DNA of 62,434 nucleotides, the filler included, from Sphacelaria rigidula (lineage: Eukaryota), in NCBI GenBank assembly GCA_964200075.2. It is 11 parts of 11 records of this genome, joined end to end, with 100 filler letters (N's around TTAATTAATTAA, not from the genome) between each part and the next. Parts side by side here need not be neighbours in the genome. Positions count along the whole stretch, not along the records: positions 1 to 5,585 come from CAXNAA020026097.1; positions 5,686 to 11,270 come from CAXNAA020026098.1; positions 11,371 to 16,955 come from CAXNAA020026099.1; positions 17,056 to 22,640 come from CAXNAA020026100.1; positions 22,741 to 28,325 come from CAXNAA020026101.1; positions 28,426 to 34,010 come from CAXNAA020026102.1; positions 34,111 to 39,695 come from CAXNAA020026103.1; positions 39,796 to 45,380 come from CAXNAA020026104.1; 3 more parts are not named here. The stretch is one strand, 5' to 3'. The notes beneath the pieces are model-generated. The model ran no database searches. It saw only the letters and a list, made by a program, of their open reading frames with translations, and was not told where the DNA came from. Below, one piece after another: positions 1 through 62,434 of the stretch. Positions within the stretch are counted from its first letter, which is position 1, and each line of letters begins with the position of its first letter. The translations under genes were made by a program, and so were the position numbers.

Positions 1-250
1 GGGGGCGTACTCATTTGTTGCTTGCCTTAGTTATTTGACCATTGATGTATTCATGGGGGGGGGGGAGGGGGAGGCACTCCTCCACAACAACGTACAAGTG
101 GTGAAAATATTTTGGTCATTTCTCGTGGAGGTGTTGAATAAACACAGCACCTGGAGTAGAGTGGTGCACATTGCTCGTCACACAACGACGAAAGGGGGCA
201 GTCTTGCTTCGTTCCTTCTCTTTTTGATGGTTTGATTTTCACGCCAGTAC

Positions 251-316
251 TCAACGAATCGGGCGAGGAAAACATAGCGTGAACTCGTGCGTCTCCACGT
301 CACTGCAATAAGTGTT
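251..316 (-). CDS. Possible terminal exon of the coiled-coil gene (NTYCSDVETHEFTLCFPRPIR*)
   Basis: Strong polypyrimidine + TTGCAG acceptor at 317-322 and an in-frame TGA. It would imply an unusually short 79-bp intron. Confidence 0.3.
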   Translation of the reverse strand, partial: NTYCSDVETHEFTLCFPRPIR

Positions 317-395
317 CTGCAATAAAACAAAAAGAGAAGTATGGAACAAATGAAAGGAAAAAAGAAGGGGGAAGATAAATATATAATATATGTAC

Positions 396-605
396 CTGTC
401 GATTCTCGACGGAGGGGCGACCTTGACTTCCCGAACCCACGCTCTCCCGCAACGGCGTCCTGAGCCTATTAGGGGAACCCCCCGCACCACTCCCTGGGTT
501 GCCCTTTGACGCAGGCGACAGACGGCTCTCCACCCCTTCCAATCTCGCGCGAAGGGTCTCCGCCTCTTTTTTCCACCGATCTGCCTGTAAGTTGGCCACT
601 CGTAC
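396..605 (-). CDS. Coiled-coil protein, exon D (VRVANLQADRWKKEAETLRARLE…ENRQ)
   Basis: AAG acceptor after a T-rich tract, CAG|GTAC donor, 210 bp, phase 0/0. The coiled coil continues across the junction (RLTEE|VRVANLQ). An alternative acceptor at 585 is possible. Confidence 0.68.
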
Positions 606-1430
606 CTTTTCCCGCGCAGGGGCGGTAGTAAAAAAGAAGAAAAAACACACAAACACATACGAGTATGTTTTATTTTATTTCAATTTATTTTAATTCTTCA
701 ACTAGTTCAGCCAACGTTAAATATTGATTATTCCACTGCGAGGGTAGGTCATGCGGTGATGCACTAATTTTTCCAAGTGAACTTGATGTTGATTTTACAA
801 TCGACTCAGGCTCTCCGTCGAAGGGTTTACTCCCGCACGCGCACAAAAAAAAACTGTCAAACGCGCTTCCGTCGTGGCTCAACTGAAGACATTGGCGGTG
901 GGAGCGCAAGAGGGTTGAGGGCGTTATACACAGTAGAATGAAGATAGGTAGAGCAAGAGCCTACCCCAGAGGTGTACAGTAGTGCACACTGCATGTCCAA
1001 ATTTCACCAACACGACTGGATGATGACTCGTACTGCCACGGATGACTGAACGAAGGACTACATTTCACGGATCGGACTAATCAGTGATTCGTCTGGAAAT
1101 TACTTGATTTTAGTGTGATTGATTCGTACCATACGAATCGATCCTTGGGCTTCGTTTTCAGCGTTGCAACCCAGGTACGCGCAGCCCAGGCACGTGGAAT
1201 AGCGCAAAAGTTGCGCGGGGACCATCTCGACCATCGGTGGACTTTTTTTCTTCTCTTTTTCGAGCAATCGGGCCTGAAAATATCGTGTATTTGGTGATTC
1301 GAATCGGCGATGATTCGTCCGAACCGTGCAATATATCGACAAAAATTGAAGGCTGACACGTCAACGTGCTGCCACTGCCGTCTCTCTCCCCCGGTCCATT
1401 TGCGTATGTGTCCGCCTGTCTCTCCCTCAC

Positions 1431-1538
1431 CTCCTCAGTGAGGCGTTCCACGGTGATCGCGGAGAATTGAACATCCATGCCTGCGGAAGATATGGATCTT
1501 TCGTTCGATCCTGTCAGCCCGTTCTCCTCGACGAAACT
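1431..1538 (-). CDS. Coiled-coil protein, exon C (SFVEENG…VERLTEE)
   Basis: CAG acceptor at 1539-1541, GAG|GTGAGG donor, 108 bp, phase 0/0. Joins exon B as EQEFE|SFVEE. Confidence 0.72.
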
Positions 1539-3450
1539 CTGCTCGATGTTATACAAAGCGAGCAGCAAACATTGACGACACACAAATAATAACAGCTCGA
1601 ATGTGAAGAAGAAAAAAAACGAGATAAATCAATAACAAACACAATTGTTGTGATGAAGGCACAACCAGTAAGGGCGTGTCTCATCACATTTTTCTTCCAC
1701 CGAAAAGTGCGGTTGAATCTGATGAATTCACTGCATTTTCGTTCCTAGCTGCCTTCAACTATTTTTTACAACTCCGAATAGTGGCGCGCGGAGAAGAACA
1801 AGTAAAAAACAGTATTGATACTCTACAATACTCGAAAATACTGAGTATTGAGTACAGTCTACATGTAGCTAAAGCTTCTTCGATCGGGAATATGCGGTTG
1901 AAAGAAACGAAGAGGCTCTCGACTTCTATCTTCAAGACTACCAGTTCAACACTTAGACGGCGAGATTAGTCTTTCTGGATCATGCACACTTTTTTTTCAC
2001 TTGAAATTGATGTTCAAGGGTTAAAGAACCGCGAACTCCACACAACTCATTCCCAGCGACCACCGCAACCCTGCAGCATAGAGCACGAGTGAGCACAGGG
2101 ATAGATATGCTGCAGCAGTTGGGTGTGCCATCTTTATTTTTTGTCGGCGAAACTCGAGCATCTTCTTCACGTACAGTGGGCAACCGGCTTGCGCACACGC
2201 TCATGGACAGTGCAGGCAGTACAAAGCTGCACGTTGTCCAAATTCTCTTCACGTCGCATTGCAAGCAGAGAGAACTGATAGTCCTGGGCTGTCTGCACTG
2301 CATGTTGTCCGATTCTCCTTCACATCCTTTTGCTCGAAACACCTATACCCGCACTCGAGACACACTGCATTCAAACAGTGCACAGACAGTACCGACCGTC
2401 TGTACTGTACACAGGCGACAAATATCAATTTTACCGCCCCTTTTTTTCAATCGTGTGTAGACACATCCTATGGGCCTGTCTTGGCTCGTTAGTTTTCGAT
2501 CGAAATTGTGCGGTGGAAAGCAAGAATCCCGATCTAGTGGCTCGTCATTTCAACCATCGTGAATTTCGACGATGGTTTACAACTCGACCTATCAAATCGG
2601 GATTATTGCTTGACCACGGGTTCGCGAGATCGGACTAATGTGCGGAAATAATAATAATAATAAATAATAAAACCGCACAATTTCGATCGAAAACTCATGT
2701 GCTGAGACAGGCCCCAAGGCTGGAAAAACAAAACACACTACACTTCATTCGTGATGGTACGAACTGAGGTCGGGAGTGAACGAAAACCAGACATCTTACA
2801 GGTCCCATCGGTTTTCCGTCAAAAAAAAAGAAAAGAAAAAAAAAGACAACAACGCATCCGCCTTCAGCACGAAAAATTATATTACTTGAGGCGAAAAAGA
2901 AGCAGCAAACAAACACGAAACAAAACCAAACAAACGATATTATGTGATACTGACTGTAACACCAGACACCATGATTGATAAATTGGTTGTCGCACATTAC
3001 AGCAGCTGGCTGCAAAAATACAGCCCGTTGTCGGGAACGGCAAAAATGAGTGGAGTCAGTATGAGAGAGGAGAACGGACAGGAAAAAATAGAAGCAGCAG
3101 CCACAGAAAGGAAAGAAGAAAGAAAACAGCGACACAGAAGGGTTGATCTCATAATAAGAAAGAATGAACGAGCGAGCGGAGGACCTCTTGACAACATAAC
3201 AAAAAAACAGGGATATACACGTTCGACGTTCCACAGCGTTACACGTCACGTTTTGGCCAAAACGTAACGTGAGTGTGATATTTTTTTCACGTGTGGACCG
3301 CGACGTGAACGGACCGTTAATTTTTCAAATAAAATGCTAACGTAACGTGAACGATATTTTTCTTCACGTGATGAACGTAACGTTAACGTGTATATCCCTA
3401 AAAAAATCAGGACGAACAACAACGCGGCCACCATCCGGGGGGTAGCTTGC

Positions 3451-3582
3451 CTCGAATTCTTGTTCCAGCTCCTGTATCTCCTCTCTGTGAGCCTCCCTCA
3501 TCTCTTCCATTGCGCCCTCCGAAGCCATGATCCGGTCTTCCAACAGCCCAATGTAACGCTCCAGCGGCCCACCAGGGGTAGG
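3451..3582 (-). CDS. Coiled-coil protein, exon B (PTPGGPLERYIGLLEDRIMASEGAMEEMREAHREEIQELEQEFE)
   Basis: Open 44-codon phase-0 exon in a frame the ORF track does not show. AAG acceptor after a pyrimidine tract; donor GAG|GCAAGC (GC-AG type). Confidence 0.72.
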
Positions 3583-4268
3583 CTTTCGGAAAACAAATCA
3601 CACAAATCACAGCCCGGTATGACGACCGATCACGAATCAACAAACACCATTAACGCAAGACGGAGCAAATTAGATACATACTCGGGCACAACTAAAATGA
3701 CGTGATACTTTCACGGCACCACAATTACGGGATATCCTGTGACTCACTCTAGGCTGTTATCCACGATAAGCCAGGTAATAGGTTCGCTTTCAACAATCTT
3801 AGCAGGATGCAGCTCATCTCTCATGCGACTTGCCAAACTAGTTTATCACGGCGCTTTGCGCTATTTGAACCCAAGCCTGGTTCGAAGCCCGGCGTGCTCC
3901 GTAGCGGCAGTGTCAGGATGCGAGATCAATCTTCTCTCGACCACGGCATGCAACATCGAGTATACCCCCACCCCCTAGTGCGTCAAGAACCCGGCGTGCC
4001 TTGTCCCGGCTATGTGGGGATGCGAGGCCAACGTTCTTGTAGCGATGGCATGCTAGAGAATGACTTCATCCTTCCCCCGCCCCCCATTGCACAATATTCC
4101 TGTTGTTGTTGCTGCTGCTGCAGCTGTCTTCACATTTAAAACCGTTCCGATACCTGCGCAGTACGACTCTGTACTGCGCATCTGATGCCGACGGCTTACG
4201 TCGTCACAAGCCAACTACCCAAAATAAGGTATCCGTACTAGAAAAACAAAAAAACGAACGCCACCTAC

Positions 4269-4538
4269 CTGATGTCCGATCCGTTCCCTTTCCGGCGACA
4301 GCGTCTTGTTCGCCAGGGTAGCCTTCAGCTTGGCCTTTAAGGTCTGGTTGTCCACCTGCAAGTTTTTCATGACAAGGTTGATGCTCTGCCGGGCGTCAAC
4401 GAGCCCGCTGTCCGACTCCGCCCCGGACATGTAGCCGTCTTCACATTGGACCTCCTCCTCATCCTCGCCACGGTTTTCATTGTCGTTCTCAGACTCGCAG
4501 TCCGTGTCTCCGGGGCTTCCGACCGCCCGCGGTGGAGT
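4269..4538 (-). CDS. Coiled-coil protein of unknown family, exon A (TPPRAVG…ERIGHQ)
   Basis: CAG acceptor at 4539-4541, CAG|GTAGGT donor, 270 bp, phase 0/0. Acidic low-complexity stretch, then heptad-like LVMKNLQVDNQTLKAKLKA. Confidence 0.75.
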
Positions 4539-5585
4539 CTGTCCAAAGTCAATGCATATATAACATACATAATGAAATGAAAAATAAAAATTCAAAGTCA
4601 GACATATATACAAAACAGAAAAAAAGTGAGGCAACAACACAGGGATCGGGTCACGACAAAATCAAGAAAACATGAGACTATCAACAGTGCCGTGTAACAC
4701 GGCGACGAGATGCCATGTCGGAACGGAACTTGACGTGATCTCACATGGTGGCGAAGGTGAACCTTGTGCATGAAAACAAGACATGTACGGTACTGTCTTC
4801 CCCTTGTCCAAAACTCCATTTAACAACGCAACCTCATCTCATCCACATCCCATCCACCAAAACCGAACATCGAACACCCATCAACAACTGTAAAATATCC
4901 TGACCAATTCATCCCATTTATCATGTTTATATTATATATATATAATCGCATGGGTAATATTTCAGTATCCAGGGATGGAACGTTTTCAGAAGAAAAATAT
5001 ATACTCCGTATATAAAAATAATACGCATACAGTGACCACGTATCAAGAGGGATGCTACGGTATGGGTGCAAAAATATTTTCTGGAATAAGGATTGTTAGG
5101 AGCCCTTCATCTCATTCAAAACACGACTTGTGAAATATGTGAGAGTACGCCAGGATTACTATTCCAACGTGCTAGGAATGTCCCGAACGGATTTACAAAC
5201 AGGGGTGCCCTGACCCATATTCTTGTGCGTGTAGATTTTTTAGGAGCCCCTGACCCAGACAAGGTTTTGCGCGAAAAGTGAAACCCTACCATACAGAACA
5301 GCCATTGAAAACGTTGAGCGCCATTACCACACATCCCCTTTTCCCTTCTCGTTCTCCGTAAGTACCCAACACCAACTATTTTTTACTATCCAGGGAAACT
5401 CATGTTCGAAACCGTGCGGGGAGCGATACACTACCAAGCCGCCCACGGCTATGTCGCTGGAAACAGCTAGCCAACCAACCACAAAACACTTTGGTGGACG
5501 GCACCTCGACTCTTACTGAAGGGGGGGGGGGGGGGGGGGCCAAGGTTGTCGGGCTTCGGCGGTCCGGTCAGGGGGAAACCACGAC

Positions 5586-5685: not shown

Positions 5686-6313
5686 TTTTTTTTTTAAAAA
5701 GAAAAAAAAAAGAACAATTATTTATTTGTGGTTAAGTCCCCCCCCCCCCCCCCCCCCCTTGCAAATGAGTACGCCCCCCCCCGCTCCGCTCCCCCGAGTA
5801 GGAACGGTGCTCCGTCTCGCAAGGAATGCGTGATCAATGGTCCAACGACTAAGGCAAGCAACAAGTGGGTACGCCACCCCCCTCCCCCATTCCGGTCATT
5901 TTCAAAATGAGCGAAGATGATAACTGCATTTCCACCAAGCAGCTTCACATTCACAGCCCAACACGGCACAATATGCGAAGAAAACAGTACAATCAAGGCG
6001 TCTGCTTCATACTACATCTGCTTCGGTGCGCAGGGATTTTCAGAACAAAATACCATGCATACCTACACTGAAACCAAGCTCGCATTATGCAGGCCGTTTG
6101 TCAATACCAGGTGGTTGGTGCACGAAATCTCAATCAATCAGTTAGCTTTCTATCGATTTTGTTTTGGGGGGGGGGGGGCGTACCCATTTTTTGCTTGCCT
6201 TAGTCGTTTGACTATTGACCACGCATCCCTTTCGGGACGGGNNNNNNNNNNGATGCGGGTGGCGCGGCGACCACGTTGAAGTTGGTCCATGAGGTTATTA
6301 TCGTTTGTTTTGT

Positions 6314-6960
6314 GGGGGGGGATGGACGTACCCATTTGTTGCTTGCCTTAGTCGTTTGACTATTGACCACGCATCCCTTTCGAGACGGAGAATCATTCCT
6401 ACTCCTACTCCGATAATAGTAGGGGCACCTCTAACGTTCGGGTGCTCAATCTTCTCTTTCCATTAATCGTACACCAAACCTCTTACAAATCTTATCTCCG
6501 TTCTGTTTCGCCGTGTGTGGCCACCATATATCTCCTCGTATAGCCATCGTCTTCTCCCTTCTGCCTAACGCATCAAACGTTTTCATGCCACCTTCGATTG
6601 CTCCCCATGTTTCCCCCTCCAACACATCCCATTCCTCCTTGTACAGTTTAGACTCTGCCACCATATGAGTTCTACTCTCTATTGCTTTGCCTCACTGGTA
6701 TACCCCTTCCTTCTTTCTGGCAGGTCCAGATCCCCTACCCGAAATCGCAATTCCAGAATTTTCGCAGTCCGTTGGGTCATGCAGAGGTGTTTTCATCCCT
6801 ATCCCCTCCCTCAACCGGCCACACATCTTCAGGTGCACTTCCTCGTCTACTTTCCGTCTTCGCGTTTATTTTTCTTCCATTTCTATCAAGCCTCTTACTT
6901 TTGTCTTGTACCTTCCACGTTCACCTATGGACATTGGAGAGTTGCGGGGGAAGAAGAAAA
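6314..6960 (-). mobile_element. LINE ORF2 C-terminus (cysteine/zinc-knuckle region) plus 3' end, degenerate
   Basis: Translates to …GKAIESRTHMVAESKLYKEE…KTMAIRGDIWWPHTAKQNGDKICKRF, paralogous to 9340-9900. Ends in the shared tail motif and a G-run on the + strand. Confidence 0.8.
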
Positions 6961-8039
6961 CAGGCCTCAAAAATTCAGGGATAATCAACAAAGTTAGGAT
7001 TCAAGGCCAGGATATGATGAACTCCCTAGTTAAACCCCGACAACGAAACCCTGAGGAGAGACGTCTCCAGCAACTCAGGAGTAACTTTTAATTTTCGAAA
7101 TAATCCCCGAGTTGTGACCCACTCCGGAGCGTTCGCGCCAAACTTGGGGCTAGGAAACGGAACTAGACACCCCGCTTCACAACGACTAAGATGAGAGAAC
7201 ACAGCCGTAGGACAAATATCGTACGTGGGGCGATGGCAGCTCGTTCAAGAGGGCCACCCAAGGCTACGAGGAAGACTTGGAGGCGGGCGGGAGAGTCGAG
7301 ACAACACTCGACCTGGCTGAAAATGAGGCGGAGGGGCAGCAGTCGGTCACCCCTGCAGCGGCTAAGAGGACATCCACCAAATGGCCACCTAACGTCAAGC
7401 TTGTGTTGGCTCGCGTGAGTCCATCACCGATGGGTGGCCATTTCGTCGATGTTCTCGTGGCGGCTGCATGAGTGGCCGACTTCCGTCCTTCCGCCTCATC
7501 TTCAACCAGGTCGACAAGTGTCTCGGCTCCCCCGTCCGCTTCCACCCAGCTAGGATTACTGCGTAGTGTATGTGCTGAGGATGAACGTACTTGCTCAACG
7601 TTTTTACATAGACACACACCGGCATGTGTACAATTGTACTACAGAGAGTACAGAACTGTCTACAGACAGTCTATCAGGACAGTTCTCACAACTTGTGCTA
7701 GTGCTGTACCACACACCGACAGCTACAGCACTTGTGAATGACTTGCGGGCGCCGAGATACTGCTGTCGCGTATTCAAAGGTATAGGGGCAGCACAGACAA
7801 CTGTATACATGCTCTTCTGCGCTGTACGGGTAGCACCGCATGGGTAGGCGCAAACTACAAACGCAGAGCAGCACGGCGCAACTTTTACCTCTTCAACTCA
7901 CGACACCGACCACGTGGCACTCGGAACAGAAAATACTAACGCTGAAAAGTTGGCCACGGTCCACACCTACCTGGAAAAATAAAATAAACACAAACCTGGG
8001 GTTCAAGCGTGAACAATCCATCCGTTTTTCGCTCACCCA

Positions 8040-9231
8040 TGAGTTCAGATTTTTTTCTTCCCACAACTCTCCATCATCTCGTCTTGGTTTCCTCCAATCT
8101 CTTTTCTATACTTTCTCGACTACTCTATCCCACCTGATTCCAGCCTGCCCTTTCGTCATTTTCCACCATACAGCCCCGTCAGCTATGGCTGGCAATCTCT
8201 TTCTTTTCATGCTTCTTACAAAATATGACCACTTAATTTCCTCTTGTCTCTGTTTGTTTTAAGTGAGTACATTCCCATCTCTGCTCCCAATACTGTATTA
8301 CTCGTCGTTTTCCAGCATTCCAATTATTTTTTTCGATGTTGCCATCTGTACTGTTTCCAACTTCTTCAACTTCGCGCTCCCTCTCATACTTCTCCCGCAT
8401 GTTCCAGCCTTGGTACAATCACGTTCATCAGGATACGTCTCTTAATCCTAGAGTCTAGGTGCGAGTCTCTGACGATCACGTCAATCCTACCTTCCTGTAC
8501 CTTACCCTCTTCGATTACTCTACTCATGTGTGCATCCCAAGAATAATGTTTCGAGACCTCTACGTCAAGGTATGTTTACTGGTCTACTATCGGCAGTTCC
8601 TGGTCTCTCCCCTTCCATTTGATTTCTACCGGGTTCTCATCTTCGCTACATGGAAGTACCGCGCATTTGTTTACGTTCGCTGTCACTCTCCTTTCCCAGT
8701 GTATAATATCGCCTTCTCTATTTGCTTCTGCAATCGTTCTGGTGTATCTGATATTCCCATGAGATCATCCGCGAATTGATATCTGTGACGGTTTATAGGC
8801 AACCGATTAGACTACCGTATAGTCAGCGCTGACTGTACGGTAGTCAAATCGGTTGCCTATAAATCGCACAAAAGGTAGTCGCTGGTTCGATTTCCATCGT
8901 ACGCACTTTCTTTGAAGAAAAGAGGAAACCCCACCTGCAGTAAAGTTGCCTACAAATCGTCACATACCGAATCTTCCCCCACGTTGACTCCTTACTTTGC
9001 TCCTTCTTTTGCTAATATTAGGTGATTAACAAATATTTTGAATAAAGTGGATGATAACGTACATCCTTGACAAGAATATTTCGATATTCCCCCGCGTAGC
9101 ATCATGTCACTTTTCGCACATTGTCATCCGTTTCACCATTTTCCATATTTCTCCCCTCATGCCAGTTTCCCACATATTTTTCCACAGCCAATTTCTCCAT
9201 ACTGTCATAGGCCTTCGGTACGTCTAAAAAA
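8040..9231 (-). mobile_element. LINE reverse-transcriptase remnant (frameshifted), interrupted by a palindromic MITE
   Basis: Non-LTR RT motifs in order: FLDVPKAYD (~9200-9230), QGCTLSSTLFKIFVN (~9030-9075), FADD (8764-8775), then LMGISDTPERLQKQIEKA. Contains stops and frameshifts. Confidence 0.88.
8784..8963. mobile_element. Palindromic MITE-like insertion (TGTGACGGTTTATAGGCAAC termini; AGTCAGCGCTGACT core)
   Basis: Near-perfect palindrome 8784-8870 plus a second matching terminus at 8945-8963. It splits the RT between GEDSV and FADD. A related copy lies at 50999-51065. Confidence 0.75.
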
Positions 9232-9930
9232 CGGGGGGGGGGGGACGTACTATTAGTTGCATCCTTAGTCGTGCGACCATTAACCACGCATCACTCTCGA
9301 GACGGAACACCGTTCCTATTCCCGATGAAGACACCTCTGACATCTGGGCGCTCATCACGTTTCAGTACACAAAACGTTTTATACATCTTGTCACCTTACC
9401 GATTCGCCGTGTGCGGCCACCACCTATCTCCCGTAGTAGCATAGCCATCGTCATCTCCCTGCTGTCTCATGTATAAAACGTTTTCATACCGCCTTCGTTT
9501 ACTTCCCACATTCCCCCCTCTAGCACGCCCCGTTCCTCCTTGTATACTTTACATTCTGCCACTTTATGAGTTCTACTCTCGATTGCTTTGCCACAGGGGC
9601 AATTCTGTGCATCTACTTCCGCCTTCACTCGACTACTGGTATACCTCTTTCTTCTTTGTGGAAGGTCGAGGTCCCCCACCCGAAATCGCAGTTTCCATTG
9701 GGCCATGCAGATATGTTTTCATCCCTATTCCCTCTCTCAACTCGCCGCATATCTTCAGGTGCACTTCTTCGTCTACTTTTCGCCTTGGCGTTTTTTTCGC
9801 TCATCTTCATCACGTCTCCTACTTTGAATTTGTACCTGCTACATTTACCTTTCGACATTATTTAGTACTGGGCGCCTCACCTACTTCTTGTTCAGAAGGG
9901 TTCCTTCTCGCGACTACTCTTCGATAAGAG
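9232..9930 (-). mobile_element. Second LINE 3' fragment with CCHC-like knuckle, tail abutting the RT copy
   Basis: WKLRFRVGDLDLPQRRKRYT…CPCGKAIESRTHKVAECKVYKEER, then the shared 3' end and a G-run at 9232-9244. Confidence 0.85.
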
Positions 9931-10369
9931 TCGCAAGTGCTAGCGTCGGTAGATTTTGGTGAAATAAACATATCGTCTCCCCCCCCCCCCAGTACCAAAG
10001 TTAGTGTTTGTTGATTTTATCCGGCGACACGAGTAGATACCCCGTATATCAGCAGGGTGTTATTGACTGTGAAACACAGTTATTCAGCCCTAGTGCAATG
10101 AGTGGGTAATTAAAAAAAAAAAAACCTACACATTCCTTCACAAATACGACCGGGACAGGCTCGATCGACCGGAAATACCGAAGAGTCGGAATCTGGGCTG
10201 AAACGTGTCAGGACCTCCGATGACTGGTCAGCCTGTAAGTAATTCAATATTGAGTACATATGTTTTTTCCTTGGAATGTGGAGCGGACACAAGTATCTTC
10301 AAACCCTCAATGTGACGAGCAGTGGCCAGCGAAATAGCCTAAAAAAATCGGCAATCACGAAGAAATTAC

Positions 10370-10831
10370 AAAATGAAGAGTTCAGGCGCCCAGTACTGTA
10401 TCTCATCTTGGTTTTCACTCATATCCTTCCATACCTTCTCGACTACGCTATCCTACCTGATGCCAGCCTGCCCTTCCGTCATTTTCTTCCATACGGCCCT
10501 ATCAACGATGACTGGCAATCTCGTGGCATCCTCCTTTCGCCATACCGCCATTTCATTCTTCTCATGTCTCTGTTTGAAGTGGGTACAATCTCAAGTCTGC
10601 TCTCAATGCTGTATTACTCGTCGTTTTTGGACACCCAAGTATTTTCTTAGCTGCCGTCATATGTGCTGCTTCCAGCTTTTCATCAACTTCACGTTCCTCT
10701 TCCCATACTTCTCCTGTATATTTCAGCTTCGATACAACCACACTTATCGGAATAATATCTTAATTCAGTATCTACGTGAGTCTCTATCACCTCCAACTTG
10801 TCTATCTGTGTCCTACACTTTTCCATTACTT
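10370..10831 (-). mobile_element. Third LINE fragment (post-RT region)
   Basis: Paralogous to 8100-8500 at nucleotide level (e.g. ttctcgactacgctatcctacctgatgccagcctgccc). Its 5' truncation point abuts the G-run at 10832-10853. Confidence 0.75.
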
Positions 10832-10942
10832 GGGGAGGGGGGGGGGGGGGGGGGAGAGCCGGGAGGTCTCCCTGGCGGCTTTAGGGGGGGGTGCGTGTTA
10901 GCACATCATGGGGGGATCGTCTACCCTTTGCCNNNNNNNNNN

Positions 10943-11215
10943 TGACCTCGCATCCCTACAAAGCCGGGGCAGAGCACGCCGGGTTTTCGCCCGACCAGGC
11001 TCACACTCAATCACCAAGCGCGAAGCGCCGTGGTGTGTTCGGCGAGTCGTATGGGTGAGCTGCATCCTGCCAAGATTGTTCGGGCTGAAGACTACTGATT
11101 ATCTCGCTCATAGGGGAGGGGGGAAGGCTTCCCCCTACCCAACACAACTGGTTAGACACCCATGAGGCAGTGTAAAAAGCTGTGGCTGTCTCTGGAAGTG
11201 GCAATACCACAGAAT
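10943..11215 (-). mobile_element. Family-B short retroelement (SINE-like or second LINE 3' end); copies at 3845-4085 (+), 11371-11450 (+), 14885-15135 (-)
   Basis: Shared ccc/ggcgtgctc…gggatgcgaggtca block in at least four places. Its 3' end resembles the LINE tail (GGATGCGnGGTCAATGGTC…ATGAGTAC + C-run). Confidence 0.65.
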
Positions 11216-11592
11216 AAAGCAACTCATTGTTGGCTGTCACCCAAATACAAGATAATCAGTAGGCTTCGGGNNNNNNNNNNNNNNNNNNNNNNNNNNNNNN
11301 NNNNNNNNNNNNNNTTAATTAATTAANNNNNNNNNNNNNNNNNNNNNNNNNNNNNNNNNNNNNNNNNNNNTCCCGGCTTTGTAGGGATGCGAGGTCATGG
11401 TCAAACGACTATGGCATGCATGATCATGAGGACACCCCCTCCCCCCCCCGCCTCCCGAGATGGTCAATGGTCAAATGACTAAAGCAAGCAAGAAATGAGT
11501 ACGCCTCCCGAGATATATGCCACCCCTTGATTGTGCCGTGTTGAATGCGTTACTGTTTCGATACACCTTCATTTTTACGGTACTATACTCAC

Positions 11593-14800: not shown

Positions 14801-15344
14801 CTGTGTTGTATTTTCGTGTACATCGTCACATGTTGGCGGAAGGGAGGGAGGGAGGAAGAGGGGTGTACTCAGGATCTTCCAGGCCGTACTCATATGACAA
14901 TTGACCTCGCACCCCTACAGAGCCTTGGCGGAGCACGCCGGGTCTTCGCCGAACCAGGCTCACAATCCATCATCAAGCGAGAGGCGCGGTGACCTGCATC
15001 CTGCTAAGATTATTCGACCCGAAGCGTACCAGTTATCTTGCATTTGGATGACAGTCTCCAATGGGTTGCTTCATTTTCTGGCATCACCATTTCCAGATAC
15101 CGCCACGGCATAACTCTGCCTCATGGGTGTCTCACCATTCAAACACCATCAAGTATGATCATCCTCTTTGCCCGAGAGTGAGGTTCCCCCACCCCGCACA
15201 TCATGATCTAGCTAGACCACCATCATGGTAACCGCAAAAAAAAAACGCATGCGCACGAAAATGAGCGATAGCGTGGTTGCCTAGCTTGTGCAGTGGTGGC
15301 GTGTTCAACAGCGCCGTTGCCAACCGACGTCAACCCCAAGGGGA

Positions 15345-15854
15345 TTCCGTCCCTGTAAGGCCGCTTCTCATAGACTGAAGAAACATCTCTCTGAGAACCG
15401 CCCTTTTGAACCCTTCATCAGGGATTATTGGCGGAATATGGGCCTCGGCGGATTTGGCCTCCTCGGAACTATTTGCGATATTTCTCACGAGGATTCTAGC
15501 GCAACTTTTCCGATTGTTTGTAGGCCCAGCTTTACTTTTGACGGGGTTTTGATATGTTTCAGTCGCCCCCAAAAACGTTTAGTTGTCGGGAAGAAGACGT
15601 ACTTTTCCCCGACAACTCCAAGTTTTTTGTGCCGACTGAAAAAATCCAGAGTCCGGTCAATACTAAAACTGGGCGTACGAGAGATCGGACAAGCGCGCTG
15701 GGATCCTCGTGTAAAATATAGCAAATCTTTCCGTAGAGGCCCAATCCGCCAAGGCCCGTATTCCTCCAATAATCCGTGATGAAAGGTTCAAAAGGGCGGT
15801 TCTCAGAGATTTTTTTTTTCAGTCCATAAGAAGAGGCCTAAAGCCGGGACGGAA
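15345..15854. mobile_element. ~510-bp foldback (whole-length imperfect palindrome), MITE-like
   Basis: Arms pair from TTCCGTCCC…/…GGGACGGAA inward (e.g. tctctgagaaccgcccttttgaacc / ggttcaaaagggcggttctcagaga) to the centre agttgtcggg…cccgacaact at ~15581-15617. Confidence 0.85.
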
Positions 15855-18850: not shown

Positions 18851-18899
18851 TAAACTAGTCCGTATCGCCCCGAAACCACCAACTTGGGCCCTGTGGTTT

Positions 18900-44787: not shown

Positions 44788-45303
44788 TTCAACAGGATTT
44801 CAAACCCTCAAGGGTTGGTCTCAGGGCGTGTCTTCGCACTTTTTCTTTCGATCGAATAAATGGAGCGATGGGATTGATTTGAGCGAAAATTGCTCTCATT
44901 TTTGTCGAGTTGGGTCCACGCGAATTTTTAAGCTTTCGATCGACAAAAAACAGCGAAATTCGTGAAACGATACGTAGTCATTCGTGTACAGTACAGACAG
45001 TCTATACTGTCTGCACCGCTTGCAAGCAGTGTGTCTAGAGTACGTGTGTGCGTGTTTGTAGAGGAGGATGTGAAAGAGAAGCGGGCAACGTGCAGTGCAG
45101 ACAGCCCAGGACTATCAGTTCTCTCTGCTTACAATGCAACGTGAAAAGGACTTGGACAACGTGCAGCTTTGTACTGCCTGCTCTGTCCATGAGCGTGTTC
45201 GCAACTCGGTTGCCCACCGTACCACGCAGTTCCGTCACTGATCCTACCATGAAATAAGGTGCGCAAGGTTTCGCCAACAAAAATAAACAAAGCATATCCA
45301 ACC

Positions 45304-46143: not shown

Positions 46144-47795
46144 CGAGCTGGGCCAGCCTAGAAGCGGATTTGAAATTTGCAGGCCCATGCTTCCGCCAAT
46201 ACCTAGAGTCGGACCCTGAAATTTGGTATGGACAACGAATAGGGCGTGAAAAAAAGTATTACATCGGCACCAGAAGTTTTCATCATTTGTTACAGGTATC
46301 AGTAAAATACTAGAATCTCTATGACACTCTCGATCGATGCATTTAGCGGATGGAGACGAATTTTGGTGTGGAGAACGCAAAAGAGCCGAATAGAGAACAA
46401 AATGGGCCTGCATTTGTTTTTCGTAGAGGTTCAGGCGTTCTCGTGAAGAAATGGTGTTTACCGTAGTATAACGCCCTTAACCAGTGCAGGAAAATTAATA
46501 AAAGCAACCCGACCCACTTTGTTCTCTTGATTATGCGCTCAGAGAGCGCCCAACCAAAATATAATGCGCGAAGGTCAAAGATAGGCCAGTGAGTGGCCTG
46601 CGAAATACTATTCCAAATTTCTACCGACGCGGCTTTTAAAAGGCACATGCTCCCGCCAATGATTGGGGTTGGACCTTGAAATTTGGTATGGACAATGCAT
46701 AGGGCATGGAAAAAAAATTACATCGGTACCAATTTCTATTTTTTATTTCATGAGTTTAGGGCATTGCACTGATACTGAAAACTGATTATTGCCCTAGACT
46801 CATGGAATAAACAATAAAAATTGGTGCCGATGTAATTTTGTTTCCATGCCCTATCTATGCATTGTCCATACCAAATTTCAAGGTCCAACCCCAAACATTG
46901 GCGGGAGCATGGGCCTTCTCAAAGCCGGGTCGGTAGAAGTTCGGAACAGTATTTCGCAGGCCACTCACTGGCCTATCTTTGATCTTCGTGCATTATATTT
47001 TGGTTGGGCGCTCTCTGAGTGCATAATCAAGAGAACAAAGTGGGTCGGGTTGCTTTTATTAATTTTCCTGCACTGCTTTAGGGCGTAATACTACGGTAAA
47101 GACCATTTCTTCACGAGAACGCCTGAACCTCTACGAAAAACAAATGCAGGCCCATTTTGTTCTCTATTCGGCTCTTTTGTGTTCTCCACACCAAAATTCG
47201 TCTCCATCCGCTAAATGTCAGAAGAGTGTCGCGATGATCCCTTTGACGTGATCGCTAGAGTTGGCGCAATGGCACCTAAGCCAAGCAAGCAGACAAGCTG
47301 CTTTGGAGTGTAGACAGAAGATGATGTTCAAGGTGCCTCTTGCAGGCAAGACAGTCGAAACAACCCATCGTGTTGAACGGTCAACCGGGGAGAATGACTC
47401 ATGTATCACAACTGCTATCCCACATCATACCCTCACATCAGACCAAACCTTCGTGACCGGTACCTGCGATCCCAGCACTACATATATGTAAATATAAAGT
47501 CAGTACCATACGAAGCGTTGAAGAGCATGGCTTCACAGCCTCATCTTCTAACACTAAATGCATCGATCGGGAGTGTCATAGAGATTCTAGTATTTGCGTT
47601 ATCCCCCATAGGTATAGGGATTACTAGGCATGGGGTTCAACCAACGAGAAAAATATGACCCCAAACGTTTGAGCAAGTGGGCACCTTGCCCTTGATCAGA
47701 CGATTGATACCATATGTGGATCACGGCCCAACTCGTCTATGTCGATGAGATATTTCTTATCCAGCTGAAATCCGTTTTTAGGCTGGCCCAGCTCG
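46144..47795. mobile_element. Mariner-type non-autonomous element (28-bp TIR, TA TSD) containing a long foldback and a solo LTR
   Basis: TA|CGAGCTGGGCCAGCCTAGAAGCGGATTT … AAATCCGTTTTTAGGCTGGCCCAGCTCG|TA (2 mismatches). Internal inverted arms at ~46306-46762 and 46790-47594. Confidence 0.85.
47216..47553. mobile_element. Solo LTR (338 bp)
   Basis: TGTCAGAAGA…TCTTCTAACA termini and a 5-bp TSD CTAAA (47211-15, 47554-58). Removing it restores the reverse complement of the other foldback arm (cgatgcatttagcgg). Confidence 0.88.
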
Positions 47796-51199: not shown

Positions 51200-52480
51200 G
51201 CGTTATTGATCCACAACAAGCCTGTTTGGACAACCTTTGCTGCTTTCAACGACGATCTGACTCGAAATGCCGAGCAACATATGACCCAAAATACCCCCCC
51301 TCCTATCGTAGGATGACTCAGGGGCCATTAAAGTTTGGATCGGGATATCGCGAAGTACCATATTTCTGTTAGAAATCGTCCTCGTCTTGCGTATGAGGTG
51401 GTACGCGAGCAGAACCAAATCAAAGCAGCGAAAGTAGCCAGGGCAAACACTGTGTTGAGTGATGCGGTCAACGACCGTCCGGCGTGGAACATACATCGAT
51501 GGACATGGGTGTACAATGATGTGAATACCGTAACTCAGGGGGCTAGCCCCAATACGTCGTCGTTGGGGAAGCTGTCGAAGTCGAAACTATCCTTGAATTA
51601 GACTGGTACCTGAAAATCTTGGCGGTTGGGTCCTGTGGTGCCGCAATCGACAATAGTTCGGTAGGTGAGGAACTCTGGCATTTGGATTTTCACACTGATG
51701 AACCTGGTATCAAACCCAAAAAACGAGTATCGATGCTAAGGTGTAAACCGTGTCTGCTCCCACATGATGCATTCAACATGCCGAAACAATTGCCAATGGG
51801 TCTCAGTCAGTAGGTGTTGACCCACTGTGCCGCCAAGCTCCCCCGCGTATCACATGACGGTTGAAGATGCCAATGGCCCTCTTGAGCGAGTGGTGGTAGA
51901 TCGCATGTCGAGCCATCAATTAGTCCGAGGTCGAGGAGGTAAAATAGCGGTTATGTATCAGAGTCATTGGAAGGATATCATGCGTGTTACCTTTGTAGCG
52001 TGAGGTTGACGTACGTCACTTTCGTCGGGATATATTGCTGTGCTGGGTAGGAGATGCCGTCCTAGACCGCCCGTTGAAGAAGGGATAAAGGTCGATACGC
52101 AATGGAGCTGCCGCTTGGGAACTGGCACGAGAGCACTCGTCGCGGTTTGCCATACCAGGATATAGCATTCTCTCGCGTTCACAATACATGCAGTCTTTTC
52201 ACGGACAACGTTTGCCGAAGGGGGGCTAGTTTTGGTATAAGGCTTTGGATTCACTGTGGTGGTTGGGTAAGATTCATTTGATCGATCCTGCATCTGACAA
52301 CTCCCACTTTATCCGTTCCCTCGATGACCCGAGCCCCCTCAAGATTCGCTTGGATGATGCCTACTAGACCGAGGTGCCGAGCGCTCGCCAGGGATCCTGG
52401 TGCCTCCAACGACACGACAAAGGCGATCTCGACACAGCCGTTCTACGCAACACGGACACCGCTTGAGATGCAGATAACTC
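51200..52480 (+). mobile_element. Ty3/gypsy-type LTR retrotransposon pol C-terminus (post-integrase, GPY/F-like and chromodomain-like region), decayed
   Basis: …W.WVYN…KSKLSLN*TGT*K (degenerate WTGPYK)…KKRVSMLRCKPC…HQLVRGRGGKIAVMYQSHWK…FLDDP. Multiple stops. Family assignment is from recollection of algal gypsy elements. Confidence 0.72.
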
Positions 52481-54520: not shown

Positions 54521-57409
54521 AATCACAGCTCACCCGTGTATTGCAGAACAGACAGGAAGGCTTTCTAAGATAATGTACTACGCTCTTGATTGTTGATCAG
54601 CAAGGGGCTGTAGAGGGATGCTAGCAGCAGTCGACTGTCGTAGTAGTCAGGCTTTGCACAGTAGAGAGTAGGCTGTCGCAATGAAGACTCCGCAGTAAAG
54701 GAGGCTTGTCTGCAGTCATCTGAAAAGAAGAGACTAACATAACCGGAGGAAGTACGTCGTATGCATCGCGGAGGTTTCTCTCTCGGCTGGACGTGAAGTT
54801 TTCGAGGAGAAGAGGCGAGATACCCTGACCTGTGAAATGCTGTTCTCTCCCGGCCGGACGGAGGTTTCTGGGAGAAAAGATTAGCATACTGACCCATGAT
54901 ATGCTATTTGCTGCGTGAAGTTTTCTCTTTCGGTCCAAAGGAGTCTTCCGAGAGACCTATGAATTGTTATGTTTCGTTAATGTTGTGAGATGTGAAATGG
55001 TGGAGTATTGACTGTGGACGATTGAACGCATCGGAGTGTTGATTGGTTGCTTGTATGTATGCACGTTGCAGTCGGAAAATTGTTGACTGTGAGTTGGACG
55101 CGCAAGAGTGTGTTAAAATCCAATAAAGTTGTTTGACTGAGGCACGCGAGAGTACAGCAATCGTTGAACGTTGACTGAAGTTTTTCACAGGTGTACGGAC
55201 ACCTGAAACCTCTGTTGAAAGGCAATCGTAAGGAGACACAGAAAATTGAAACATTTGTTTGACTGTAATGGCGAGAGTGACCAGCAGAGATGAAATCCAT
55301 AGACTACTGTGGTGGAAACATGGGTCAGCAACGTAGATACGTAGACTGTTACAGCGAAGGTAGGCCGATCACAACGAGAGCTTTGCAGCGAAAAACATGG
55401 GCATAGGAATGATTCCGAAAATGACTGCAGGAGGTTGCATTATAAACAGTGAAGAACGATATGCAATAAATTTCGGTTATGATGTCAAGTGGTGGCCAGA
55501 AAAACTGCCGAGGGTGTAGGGTAATGAGATCATTTTGTCTTCGTCTTGGGGAGTACACCGGCAGAGTATCTATGAACTTTGACTGAGGGAGGGTCGAGGG
55601 TGCTGGAACACGGATTTTCTTCTGAGCGAATATGCAAGCAGTTGAGTTGTGGATTGTTGTAGCGTAATAAAATTGCCTCGGTTGACTGTAGTTGATTGGC
55701 TATAGGAATCAAACGCCAGAGTACGGTGATCGTTGAAAGTTGACTGAAAATTATCGCAGGGCCAGTGATTTGAAATTTTGACTGCTGAAGACGAACGCGA
55801 AGGGGTACGGTGATTGATTCTTTTAGATTGACTGTTGTAGTAACGAACGTATAGTGAAGGGCATGAATTATCCGGGAGACCACTGAAGCGCAAGGAATAT
55901 TGGGTCAGCAACGTAAACACGACGGACGGTCGTAGCGTTTGAAAGCCAGAAATACCATGATGTGTAAGCGCTGCAAAACATGAGAACAGTACACGATTTA
56001 GGAAAATTGATGTAGGAGTGCACCCCAGGTGGAGAAACGAGACGGCATGCGCTGCATTTCAATCATGGAGTCGAGTGACGGCCGGTGAATTGCCAACAGT
56101 TACGAGGAAATGTTAATTCATGGAGTCGCTTGTTTCGATGGAAGGAAATAGTGATTGGGTGAAGATGCAAAGGTAGATGACGGATGACGAGAGCTGTGTT
56201 GTCGGTAGAATGGAATATGACGAGACGTAAACTTGAGGCTGACAATCATATTTTTCCTGGTCCCTCATGCCCCTTTCGAGCCTACACTTCCGAGTGAGGT
56301 GTCGAACCCCAAATTGCCTGACCGACCCAGGTACTGTCAACGGGAATGGGACATGCACGAAGCGGCAGTGGTTTGGGGGCGAACGGTGACCGAAGATCAT
56401 GCACTACCCCCGGCTGCGACGGTATTCTCTTCACTGGAGCATACTGAACGGGGGGATTTTTGCTCGTGAATGAAGGAACCCTTTCCCGTGCTTTGGAGGC
56501 AAGGCGTAATGCAAGCAGGGAAAGGGAGGGGGGTGGCGGGGAAGTTGACGTGCATTGAGTATATGTTCAAAGGCGTTGAGCGGTAATGCTCAGCCGGTCA
56601 ACGAAGGAAAGGGGTGTGGACTGAAAATTTGAGAGCGAGCGGAATGTTACGCTATGCTATTATGCATTTTCCTTGTTTTGAGAAACGAATACTTATTTGT
56701 TGCTTGCCTTAGTCGTTTGACCATTGACCACGCATCCCTTTCGAGACGGANNNNNNNNNNNNNNNNNNNNNNNNNNNNNNNNNNNNNNNNNNNNTTAATT
56801 AATTAANNNNNNNNNNNNNNNNNNNNNNNNNNNNNNNNNNNNNNNNNNNNCGCCAATATGACGCGCTTCACGCAGCCTGAACCCAAACATCAGACGCTGT
56901 ATGGCCATATTTTTCGCGACACTTTTGGGCTGGTTTTTGGGGGGGGCTATCGTAGAAAGTGTCACCGTGTCGGCGAGACTCCCTTTTCGGCCTTGACCCT
57001 CTGCACAATATCACGAAATCAACAGCTCCAGTATGTACACAGATTTCCGGAAGCTGGTGAAGTTCATCATCTAAAATTGACAAATAATGGGAACAATTTG
57101 ATGCCGATTGGTCACCCATGCAGGCGGCCATGGGCTCATCATCGTGAGCTATCCACGAAGAACTGTAGTAACGCTTGGCATCGGCAGTGACTTGGTTGTG
57201 TCCGCCCGTTTGTGATGTGTGCTATTCAACTGCTCGAGGGGTAAACGACGTTGCCTTGGGTCCACGTATTCGCTCTTGTCAGCCTCAGCTGGAAGAAGAC
57301 GGTGCGAACGATACGTATTCTACAACACACCTGGCTGCGTTGCCAATCCTCCAGAGGTCACGACGTGTTGCACTATTGTCGTTGGCACTCGGGAAATCAT
57401 GACAATACC

Positions 57410-58260
57410 GCACACAACACAATGGCTGAGCGTTACAAATGTCGTCTTGCATTGACAAATCTTGTCCTGGGATAAAACTCCAGGGGTCGTACAATCAAGA
57501 TGATGTAGCCGGCCCGCCCTCCTCCCCCGCCCGTCGGCGACTTGAAGAGTGAAGAAATAGCTTCTCCAGAACACCTTTCTCCTCGGTTTTTCCACAAGTG
57601 TAGGGAATTGGGGCAAAACATTGTACGGTGAGCTTTGGAGTCTCCGTTGTTGCGTCTACAGAATGGCCTTCGAGGCGGGCAGGCCACTACACATCACAAA
57701 GCTGGGCGCAACAAATGCCATGTTCTATTTGCCCCGTTGTTCTGGGAAAAAACTCGAAGCGGTCGTACATAACACGATCAGAGTCAGGACGACCCCCCCA
57801 CCCCCTCGGCGGCCTCGAGAGTGAAGAAATAAGGGGTTGAAGAACATTGTTTTTCTATATTTTCCTCTGGGTCGTCACCAGTGCAAGAAATTGGACGATA
57901 ATTTGTACTGGGAATTTCGGGAGCCTCACTTGTTACGGCTGTATAATGGATTTCGAGGCGAAGATCGCTACACATCACAAAGTTGAGCGCTGCAAATGTC
58001 ACATCCTTTTTGCACTTTTATGCTGGGATAGAACCGAAGGGGTTATACGTACAAAAGAAAACAAAGGAGTCAGGCCCCTGTTCCCCCTCTCGGCGACGTC
58101 GAGAATGCAGAAGTAGGATCATAAGAACATTGTTCTTCTCTGTTTCTCTGCCAGCATTATCATGAATTAAACGATAGTATGTACTGGGATTTTTGGAGTC
58201 TCCTTTGTTTTGGCTACATGATGGATTTTGAGGCGCGCAGACGGCTACGCAACAAAGGGT
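57410..58260. repeat. Degenerate tandem repeat, ~280-bp unit, about 3 copies
   Basis: acac.tcacaaag.tg.gcg…caaatg recurs near 57410, 57689 and 57970. gagtgaagaaata-like motif recurs near 57547, 57818 and 58102. Confidence 0.75.
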
Positions 58261-59800: not shown

Positions 59801-60183
59801 ATGGAGAGCGACAATGTCGTGGCTACACAAAATTCGATATCACGGTCGATAAGGGAAAGGGACCGTTGGACCCATATCGCGAATAAAAATCAGGCACTAG
59901 TAGAAGAAAGAGGAATTCAACTCTTCTCTTGTGTCACCCCTGCTGATGCGCCCACGTATAGCGCAAGGTGTACACCGGCGTGAAGGATAAAATATAGGAC
60001 AGCACGCTCAGTAGTGCAGAATGGTAGGTCTTCATTGCAAACCCGCGGCCGATCGCAACTCTTCGGCCGAAACATGGGACAAGATGAGCACGTAGGCTAC
60101 TATTTACTAGTGAACACGTGACTACATGAGGTAGAAAGATGGTACTATACTTTCACAGTGCTTGCTGAAATCCCGCGACACTC

Positions 60184-60483
60184 AACAACGTTTTCGTGAG
60201 ATTGAGCGAAGAGCGCTAATTGAGAGTGGCTTTGATGATTCGCTATAACTTCGTCATTTCTTCATTTCGTGTGTGCCTTTCTTTGTGTCCATCACTGGCG
60301 TATGCTTGCAACTACACGTCGATATCTTGCTCAGGGATACCAAAAGCCTCAGTGGCAAGCTACTACGGTAAGCATATTGGGCCTCGGGGAGGGACATTTC
60401 GGAACTAAAACGATTCCGTCACTAATTGGCCGCTTTTCACTCTCAATCGTATCCTCTACTATCAATCTCACGAAAGCACTGTT
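60184..60483. mobile_element. ~300-bp MITE (TIR core TTTCGTGAGATTGA); partial copies at 34111-34330 and 50841-50990
   Basis: Inverted termini and shared internal blocks across three contigs. Confidence 0.72.
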
Positions 60484-61599
60484 ACTTGCGCTTTTCACAA
60501 AAACGATTTACTTCTTGTGCTACAAAGGTGAGAGTATCCGAGGTTAAGCTGTCATCCTTGGTACAATCCTAGGACGTGCTGGAGAAGTTCTCATACGTGC
60601 GCACAACAATAGGTGCAATGTGTGACTTAAAATCTTGTAGACACCGACAGGAGCGTGACGACGTGTCAATGCTAAACTTACACAGCACCCACAAAGAGAA
60701 CGGGGAGCTGTGCGGGCGGAGACAGCGCCGGACATGTAATCGAGGGCGAGGCTCGTGGCATATTCCATGCCGGAGGTCAGCTTCATGTGCTGCGGCTGAT
60801 TTTTCATTTTTTTTTCATGTACGTACAATAAAGAGTCGATGAGAGCATTTTTCTGTTCAGTTGCGGTACGATTCCCGCCCCGCCTTGATTTGTCTCCGCG
60901 ATAAGGCATCGTCGACAATGTTTGAACGACACATGTTACTCACTCTCGCAGACTGCCAGCACGTGGTGGCAAGGCAACCCCCATCTGAGCACATATCCGC
61001 AGCCGCACTCCATCTTGACTGGCTGGCCCGTGGAACCCCACTCCAGTGTCACCTGATTTTCCATCCTGAGGTTCGTCTTCATGGCTACCGTGTACTTGCA
61101 TTCAGAAGACGTCTTCATCAACAGCCCGTATGCCGCAACATGGAAAGGCAACGGTGTCGTCGAATGGCGAAGATGTAATTCGTGAAAGATGGTGACAAAG
61201 ACTCGGACAAGCGAGCGGCAACAACGTAGGATATACCTAAAAATCATCGACAACAGACCACGAGACCATCATGGACGACCGCGGCACGGTCGTGGCCATC
61301 ACAACTGAGCGCCGACAGCGACTACATATGTGCTACGCTGAAGTGGTTTACAGTGTAATATGCAATGGAGTTATTTGACTTACCTTTTAGACCATGAAAG
61401 CTCGCGATCTCGGACTTCTTCCAGCCAAGGTGTGAACACCTGACGGGTTCCTTCTTGAGTTGTGCGGCCTCGTGCAGCTTTTCCGCCACCATCTCTATCA
61501 CGCCCTTGGTGAAGTCGAATACTGGCCGCTCCCGCAACTGGACATCGCGCACAGAGGAAGAAGTGCGAACGACAGTTGTAGTTTGAAATTCATCCTAGA

Positions 61600-62317
61600 C
61601 GCAGGTGCTTCCGATGAAGAACATTTGAGGCCGTTGCAGCTGCCTAGAAAAGATAACGGGCGCACAAAGTCGTGGCTGTTCGCTGCTTACTGTGAAATAC
61701 ACGGTTTGCTCGTGACCTGCACGGCAAAGGGCGTACCACCGAAATGTCAATTGTGACAAACCGCTAGCGCTCATGTGGCCATTTCTCACGGCAACGGGGC
61801 CCCGATTTTACGCATTCCATAATACTTGTCGATAGCTGCAAAAAAACAAGACGCGATGGACGGACGGCGGGCGGTCACCACATCGACCCCACGCAGTATG
61901 CGCCTAGCGCGCAGACATTTTTACTCGGATCCTTACCGCGGCTCCAATCATGTTGTTGCAGCTCTCCACCATATTTGTCGTTATCTGGTCCCACACACGA
62001 TTGTCACGGCGTGTGTGGTACGCCCATCACGTGGGGTCAATTCTCATCCACTTCTCGTATGCCTGGGGTTTGTCGGCCTTTACCTTGTTCAGGAAATATG
62101 CGCTAGACGCCTCGATCGGGGCTCTCGCTGCGTTGAATATGTGCCCGAAGTTAGTCTGGCAAGAACAGCATCACATGCATGCGGACGGGTACCGCGAGAT
62201 GAGCAATGCATCGCGACGGGCGACAACAGGGCATCATGTCGGCCACTATTGGAGTTGGGTTCAGGGATGCGAGGCCGATGGTCTTGTGACTATGGTATAA
62301 TTAATTGATTGATTGAT
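61600..62317 (+). mobile_element. Highly decayed LINE 3' region ending …QGCEADGLVTMV* + (TTGA)n
   Basis: HGLLV…KGVPPKCQL resembles a LINE zinc-knuckle region. The terminal GGATGCGAGGCCGATGGTC echoes the other families' 3' motif. Confidence 0.4.
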
Positions 62318-62361
62318 TCTCTCAAGGCATGCATGATCATGAGTACCCCCCCCCCCCTTCC

Positions 62362-62434
62362 CGAAAGGTGGCATGAAATCGTTTGATGCACTAGACAGTA
62401 GGGAGAAAACGATGGCTATACTAGGGGATAGATG
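62362..62434 (+). mobile_element. 5'-truncated LINE fragment starting right after a C-run
   Basis: GGMKSFDALDSREKTMAILGDR matches the 6540-6600 copy (GGMKTFDALGRREKTMAIRGD). Confidence 0.85.

Follow-up and report, generated by a model that had tools for sequence, protein, structure and literature searches.

How does a retrotransposon come to carry homopolymers of C or G on both of its sides? The question is raised by 62,434 nucleotides from Sphacelaria rigidula (assembly GCA_964200075.2), here called the window, in which copies of a long interspersed nuclear element (LINE) are bracketed by such runs and lie in one another's tails. In the textbook view, LINEs with an apurinic/apyrimidinic endonuclease (APE) target A/T sequence and are primed on poly(A). 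An earlier note on the window proposed a C/G mirror image of that mechanism, each insertion becoming a new target. [quoted passage not shown]

The window consists of 11 separate contigs of ~5.6 kb each, joined by spacers; features that lie in different pieces are therefore not adjacent. The assembly comprises 244 Mb in 27214 contigs, and our statistics rest on the window and sampled loci totalling 964 kb. A systematic sample took the first 10 kb from each of 40 evenly stepped contigs (400 kb) and is biased to larger contigs; 30 other loci were chosen by the terminal 18-mer (pattern-picked), and the rest by similarity. A and B together make up 1.4% of the systematic sample. Of 215 candidate 3′ ends, 214 were retained. 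Copies with an N gap or the end of a contig or locus no farther than 35 nt away were excluded, 48 from the 5′ tests and 10 from the 3′ tests, leaving 204 3′ ends, 166 5′ junctions, and 158 copies scorable on both sides.

At 97 of the 166 5′ junctions, a run of at least five C's lies in the 30 nt upstream, compared to 522 of 20000 random windows (2.6%). Other runs of at least five were scarce within the same distance: G at 2/166, T at 2/166, and A at 11/166 (random, 4.9%). The C-runs were seen in every set (7/10 in the window, 14/24 systematic, 27/37 pattern-picked, and 49/95 similarity-picked) and with stacked copies removed (73/137). By eye, all seven full-length heads inspected have a C-rich tract upstream (an eighth copy has no head), and three of the seven begin within the 3′ end of another copy or just past it. 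To check this across the genome, we took the 16-mer beginning 66 nt from the A end, for which the element's own sequence upstream lacks a C5. Each site was counted once, in a single orientation; the opposite orientation, which counts long runs several times, was not used. Within 16 nt upstream of this 16-mer, C5 was present at 782 of 1940 sites, G5 at 11, and A5 at 26, a 71-fold strand-specific excess of C over G. With these junctions, and with the empty paralogs described below, insertion at preexisting C/G runs, as the earlier note had it, stands, and its reading of the targeting was largely right.

Target-site duplications (TSDs) point in the same direction. Our strict test demanded at least 8 nt with at most one mismatch and at least three matching non-C bases outside the element. 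Calling TSDs on both flanks in this way, a check that the earlier note had proposed, gave 26 of 158 copies, compared to 25 of 3127 permuted pairs (0.8%). The duplication starts at a run of at least four C's in 22 of the 26 and at a G-run of that length in none, in keeping with the C-rich duplications of mirrored L1 geometry that had been predicted. The test is conservative, because it missed the clear cases at loci L137, L138, and L153. The geometry observed is thus a sense-strand C-run at each of the element's ends, a duplication made of that run and 4 to 13 unique nt after it (25 calls), and a run that was there beforehand. The statement that truncated copies begin immediately after a C-run therefore needs amending: the run is present, but the unique nucleotides, the second half of the duplication, usually intervene.

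On the 3′ side, CCCC falls within the first 10 nt after the element end in 174 of 204 cases and AAAA in 0 of 204, and all four related contigs of other assemblies that reach the element end show the same terminus and C-run. Overall, the 3′ C tract is short (median, 9 nt; 90th percentile, 21 nt). Within duplications (n = 25), its median is 10 nt, compared to 8 nt for the target run; it is longer than the run in 13, equal in 4, and shorter in 8, with a surplus of up to 14 C-rich bases. The 3′ tract hence exceeds the target run by little: duplicated target makes up most of the C "tail," and there is no long poly(C) counterpart of poly(A). This tells on an exact mirror of L1, in which a long poly(C) would be added to the RNA and insertions would create most long C/G homopolymers de novo. 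The 13 tracts that exceed their target, and the size of the surplus, are what such a mechanism would give; the 12 of 25 that are equal or shorter, the two medians, and the short tails in general are not, and the further evidence given below leads us to regard it as very unlikely.

Whether the runs precede the insertions can be read from another repeat, which has a C-run just inside its terminal motif and in some copies has A or B inserted there. At its first end, 15 of 17 unfilled copies have at least five C's (one of the rows scored as unfilled, L151, is probably filled behind a gap), and two loci, L007 and L028, are filled at that very run, L007 with a 16-nt duplication. As the unfilled paralogs already carry them, the C-runs exist before insertion. 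One could instead imagine random insertion, followed by biased retention or by slippage or recombination that builds C-runs at element edges; the copies are old, and homopolymers mutate fast (PMC3812793). However, such a process predicts neither the 71-fold strand-specific excess, nor duplications with unique sequence after the run, nor the same run in empty paralogs, and we give it hardly any credence. The host repeat, probably a miniature inverted-repeat transposable element (MITE) or DNA transposon, is abundant and has a C/G run just inside each end (window positions 17173-17183 and 51294-51300; L102, L118, L095, L105, and others); at 56939-56946 (minus strand), the window itself holds an empty paralogous target, a C8 inside the end that A or B fills elsewhere. 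This repeat provides many of the genome's C/G runs and has been hit repeatedly by the LINE.

An insertion leaves a C-run on either side of itself, and copies lie in each other's tails, as had been noted: 26 of 163 start within 60 nt of another 3′-end word in the same orientation, and 3 of one in the opposite orientation, compared to 0.6% of random windows. In the systematic sample, 2 of 23 copies are stacked, and 3.7 to 10.8% of C-runs lie in tails; C-run targeting alone therefore accounts for the stacking, and an extra self-targeting beyond the C-run preference is unsupported by these figures.

The idea that the family could generate the genome's many long G/C homopolymers fares worse. C/G runs of at least 12 nt do outnumber A/T runs in the 400 kb, 27 to 13, as an exact L1 mirror would have it. 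However, only 27 of 113 clusters of at least eight C's (sample and window) are at recognizable A or B ends, the empty paralogs already hold their runs, and the longest runs concentrate at assembly breaks, all of which argues against that mechanism. Many other long C-runs are internal to a different repeat. A and B multiply runs, without being established as the main source of them; decayed or micro copies would raise their share somewhat. The lengths of the long runs are unreliable, because 30 of the 39 runs of at least 12 nt are no more than 150 nt away from an N gap or the end of a contig, compared to a background of 2.6% of positions. The same figure, the fragmented assembly, and the fact that the sequencing runs offer short-read contigs only would suit short-read misjoins or poly-G sequencing artifacts at homopolymers. 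Misjoins, however, leave no unique duplications that match on the two sides, nor do they favor C on the sense strand. In addition, the same element end is found in contigs of other assemblies, a contig of run X1 spans window positions 9178-9511 across a tail/RT junction (although X1 may be the window's own source), and the Ectocarpus annotation discussed below was built on a near-gapless assembly (PMC12477816). Of all the explanations considered, we find this one the least credible.

Several observations weigh against insertion by TPRT at existing C-runs. A run of at least five C's is missing from 69 of 166 5′ flanks, and the strict test calls no duplication in 132 of 158 copies; success in this test also depends on length, with 19 of 77 passing among copies shorter than 150 nt and only 1 of 41 among those longer than 600 nt. 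Pure-C duplications are not scorable by this test, the copies are old, and at least one of the 26 calls is spurious (L154 B511, removed from the tract comparison). The comparison of filled with empty sites, also proposed earlier, was made with paralogs, not orthologous alleles, and its result differs between the two ends of the host repeat: at the second, at which three copies are filled, a run of at least five C's is present in only 12 of 27 unfilled copies, with a motif that also picks up other subfamilies and the reverse end. No clean empty allele was found among the short-read contigs of the sequencing runs, in which paralogous copies swamp the comparison. Folding of the RNA 3′ ends is not significant (z of +0.7 to -1.2); a TGGTC-N4-GACTA hairpin is predicted in both families but is not taken as evidence, because compensatory change was seen in 0 of 14 pairs. 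Finally, no intact A copy was seen in this genome among 275 alignments, overlapping loci included.

How might such insertions proceed? By analogy with L1 and Zorro3 (PMC3812793, PMC3956500), we infer that the duplication geometry reflects TPRT that starts with a nick in the G-rich strand, a primer ending in G then pairing with C's of the RNA. We imagine that the nick would fall in or at the edge of the G-run, and that the G-ended 3′-OH would then pair with a few C's at the element boundary of the RNA, C's that would most simply be read-through from the donor's own genomic tail. In two cases (window position 11451 and L137; by eye), the target contains a direct match to the element's terminal CG-CC, as would suit microhomology priming. 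RT would copy from this boundary, often halting after ~66 nt, and the second strand would be cut ~9 nt past the run. One run would become two, hence the reuse of tails as targets. As for what selects the site, we lean slightly toward an endonuclease that itself prefers G-runs; an endonuclease that nicks broadly, with G:C priming selecting the sites, is nearly as likely.

The figure of ~66 nt comes from a peak in copy length. Among A copies that were not similarity-picked, 21 of 46 are 62 to 71 nt long (binomial p of 7e-15 against a uniform distribution over 21-150 nt). Many of them share a starting base yet have separate flanks (e.g., L156, L157, L158, L099, and L126), and over 58 nt they are 96.5% identical to the family majority, compared to 93.1% for long copies. 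Genome-wide, 16-mer counts are 3816 at -66 and 865 at -83, a drop of ~1.8-fold over 17 nt after correction for match rate (long copies, 0.50 versus ~0.21). The last 66 nt form a conserved module that also encodes the protein C terminus, and the boundary lies near the point where the resemblance of A and B ends. The peak may reflect a strong stop, the footprint of a protein, or an independent mini-element. Tentatively, one can envision that a brown-algal RTE-X endonuclease (a clade label borrowed from the Ectocarpus table) recognizes and nicks G-runs without poly(A), a specificity for purine runs that would be the reverse of L1's preference for T-runs, and that the last 66 nt insert as a discrete unit, which might be a protein-protected RNA fragment or a self-propagating mini-element, with thousands of copies.

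LINE A is ~5.9 kb long, as assembled by walking through similar copies (L191 and aligned copies). Besides the APE endonuclease and the RT, it has a short head and, in the 5′ untranslated region (UTR), a tandem array of 63-bp units that varies in copy number (L191, L207, and the 5′ region of L198-L203); the stop codon of its frame lies 5 nt upstream of the C-run. In the window, RT-like pieces are mostly on the minus strand and are interrupted by stops and frameshifts; across the 275 alignments, the median identity to the family majority is 86%, and the maximum is 92%. A contig of another assembly, L212, is 89% identical to the majority of this genome and has one open frame (712-4992, 1426 amino acids [aa]) with matches to Exo_endo_phos (E of 7e-13) and RVT_1 (E of 1e-30), both above the Pfam cutoffs. 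Upstream of this open reading frame (ORF), L212 has no plus-strand frame of at least 100 aa, though it is without ~900 nt of the 5′ end. A Pfam search with the C-terminal frames found no match. For the RT frame of one genomic copy, the best named relatives are proteins of Ectocarpus sp. CCAP 1310/34 (62 to 64% identity), and the same query is 68 to 74% identical to intact EN-RT proteins of 1328-1360 aa; a full-length protein of that Ectocarpus, P0122, is 53% identical to the L212 frame over 1365 aa. The Ectocarpus proteins being the best named relatives, a brown-algal host is probable. A sister lineage of EN-RT proteins on long contigs (P0010-P0047) has ~50% identity in the RT and 37% overall, and the three inspected keep a similar C-terminal motif.

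Family B, of ~520-585 bp, is nonautonomous. Its last 52 nt are common to A at 83%, and a 41-nt head resembles that of A at 76%. Genome-wide, exact terminal words number 4539 for A and 2340 for B (terminal 20-mer), with 0 for reversed controls. A second favored start gives a form of ~300 bp, usually with a C-rich tract before it (window positions 11149 and 39679; L103, L051, L099, L181, L036, and L047). We considered B as a tRNA-derived short interspersed nuclear element, transcribed by RNA polymerase III, and rejected this: ARAGORN found no tRNA gene in five loci with long B copies, Rfam had no match over L115 1440-1880 (the 3′ two-thirds of B), and the head resembles A's own 5′ end.

The system is not new, because C-rich ends are already recorded in one supplementary table. 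The supplement of PMC12477816, a 2025 Ectocarpus transposable element (TE) library, lists RTEX-1_Ec32 (5867 bp, a single EN-RT ORF, a (C)n 3′ end, and a "C-rich" TSD), RTEX-2_Ec32 (5582 bp, "(C)n termini/TSD"), and RTEX-N1 (607 bp, a 60-bp 3′ end 83% like RTEX-1/-2, tandem occurrence possible); RTEX-1, -2, -N1, and -N2 carry the "(C)n" and "C-rich" TSD annotation, and in the text consulted, "C-rich" as a term is confined to the supplement and absent from the main text. A resembles RTEX-1 and -2 in length (~5.9 kb) and in the single EN-RT frame of L212, its copies in this genome being broken. The (C)n 3′ end, C-rich duplications, and tandem occurrence are common to both systems, and B parallels RTEX-N1 in the extent and identity of its common 3′ end, with weak 5′ homology in addition. 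The two differ in that the copies here are old, whereas most Ectocarpus TEs are recent, and in that the published rows seen give no target statistics, geometry, or mechanism and do not mention a 63-bp 5′ UTR array or a 62- to 71-nt peak. A and B are further members of this RTEX-type system, a likeness drawn from description and protein similarity and not from consensus alignment. Our search found no dedicated study of C-run-targeted retrotransposition beyond PMC12477816, most subscription journals and Repbase Reports being outside its coverage, and nothing relevant in what was accessible of bioRxiv 10.64898/2025.12.07.692804. The measurements new here concern strand bias, the geometry of the duplications, paralogs with and without insertions, the shortness of the tail, and the peak at 66 nt.

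Comparison with better-known LINEs brings out the differences. Mammalian L1 uses TPRT at 5′-TTAAAA with poly(A) priming (PMC3812793). A shares with it the APE and RT, duplications with the homopolymer first and unique bases last, 5′ truncation, and reuse of tails as targets; it differs in using C/G and not A/T, in having no long added tail, and in a frame that runs to 5 nt from the end. Unlike the case in L1, the 3′ module common to A and B suggests stringent 3′ recognition. Zorro3 of Candida albicans integrates into existing runs and so is likewise flanked by a homopolymer on either side (PMC3956500), but it is an L1-clade element with poly(A) and a zinc-knuckle ORF1, described there without TSDs (PMC3956500), whereas A and B use C-runs and their duplications include unique bases. 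Placement with the L1 clade and Zorro3, by a poly(A) tail and an A/T-rich target, was rejected on the AAAA and A-run counts given above. Waldo, Mino, Kibi, Koshi, and Dong target simple repeats (ACAY, AC, TC, TTC, and TAA), a choice attributed to the endonuclease; that list includes no mononucleotide C/G target (PMC3812793). The 5′ poly(T) from twin priming is a different structure (PMC2837659). A family primed by G:C pairing would offer a natural way to find out which of the two, endonuclease or primer pairing, determines the target, with L212 and P0001 as intact relatives for an assay. On the practical side, thousands of copies under 100 nt with C-runs will escape repeat annotation and sit at many short-read assembly breaks.

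In the window itself, all of the runs named in the earlier note are present within 1 to 2 nt. At its start, a 40-nt A 3′ end (6-45, minus strand) has its tail G5 (1-5) cut by the contig end, and a G11-A-G5 tract (55-71) lies 9 nt beyond its 5′ end. Two diverged B pieces follow in tandem (3742-4068, plus strand), each with a C-rich tract after it. In the second piece, a 12-nt micro-copy of the A terminus (5762-5773, plus strand), identified by eye and not called by the pipeline, lies between C21 (5738-5758) and C9 (5774-5782); in its tail sits a 78-nt A copy (5796-5873, plus strand) with its own C-rich tail (5874-5888). An A 3′ end at 6179-6240 (minus strand; tail G13, 6166-6178) has its 5′ side hidden by an N gap. 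Positions 6151-6240 and 6299-6388 are 91% alike, with ~15 nt of unique flank common to both tails across the gap; either insertion into the first tail with a long duplication or an overlap in scaffolding would explain this. A 5′-truncated A copy (6327-9230, minus strand; tail G8, 6314-6321) holds ~1640 nt of element, from inside the RT to the end, and is split by inserts at ~6934-8075 and ~8776-8963. Next to it, a second truncated A copy (9246-10831, minus strand; 1083 nt of element) contains an inverted-repeat insert (~9867-10394); its tail, G12 (9233-9244), adjoins the RT-truncated 5′ end of the first at 9230, confirming the abutment reported at 9232-9244, and a G-run (10832-10854) adjoins its own 5′ end. 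Two B fragments complete the piece, one cut by an N gap (10943-11107, minus strand) and one running from the short-form start, with C5 shortly upstream, to the contig end (11149-11270, plus strand).

The third piece opens with a B 3′ end (11371-11434, plus strand) and its C-rich tail (11435-11456); in this tail is a 43-nt A copy (11461-11503, plus strand) with a perfect 11-nt duplication (11451-11461 and 11504-11514). A near-complete B copy (14864-15363, minus strand) has a C-rich tail at ~14842-14863. An internal A fragment from the endonuclease-RT linker (23250-24093, minus strand) keeps neither end. Between C15 (30631-30645) and C5 (30684-30688) lies a 30-nt B copy (30654-30683, plus strand), whose flanks by eye resemble an aged duplication that the strict test did not call. 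Farther on, a C14 and the start of a short-form B copy (39657-39695, plus strand; by eye) lie at a contig end, and an A 3′ end at 56690-56750 (minus strand) is exceptional in having no C tail. In the last piece, a B 3′ end, interrupted by a short AT-rich insert, leads into a C12 tail (62346-62357; 62263-62357 in all, plus strand), in which an A fragment starts (62365-62434, plus strand), 97% identical to the family majority and cut by the contig end.

The window also contains many palindromic MITE-like elements, some inside LINE copies and several in families that recur between contigs (7278-7544, 8784-8870, 15345-15854, 18898-19749, 26160-26859, 44397-45266, and 46340-47217). A distant RT fragment at 32081-32395, 30% identical to P0001, belongs to a different LINE family, and a degenerate tandem repeat of ~280 bp occupies 57412-58257.

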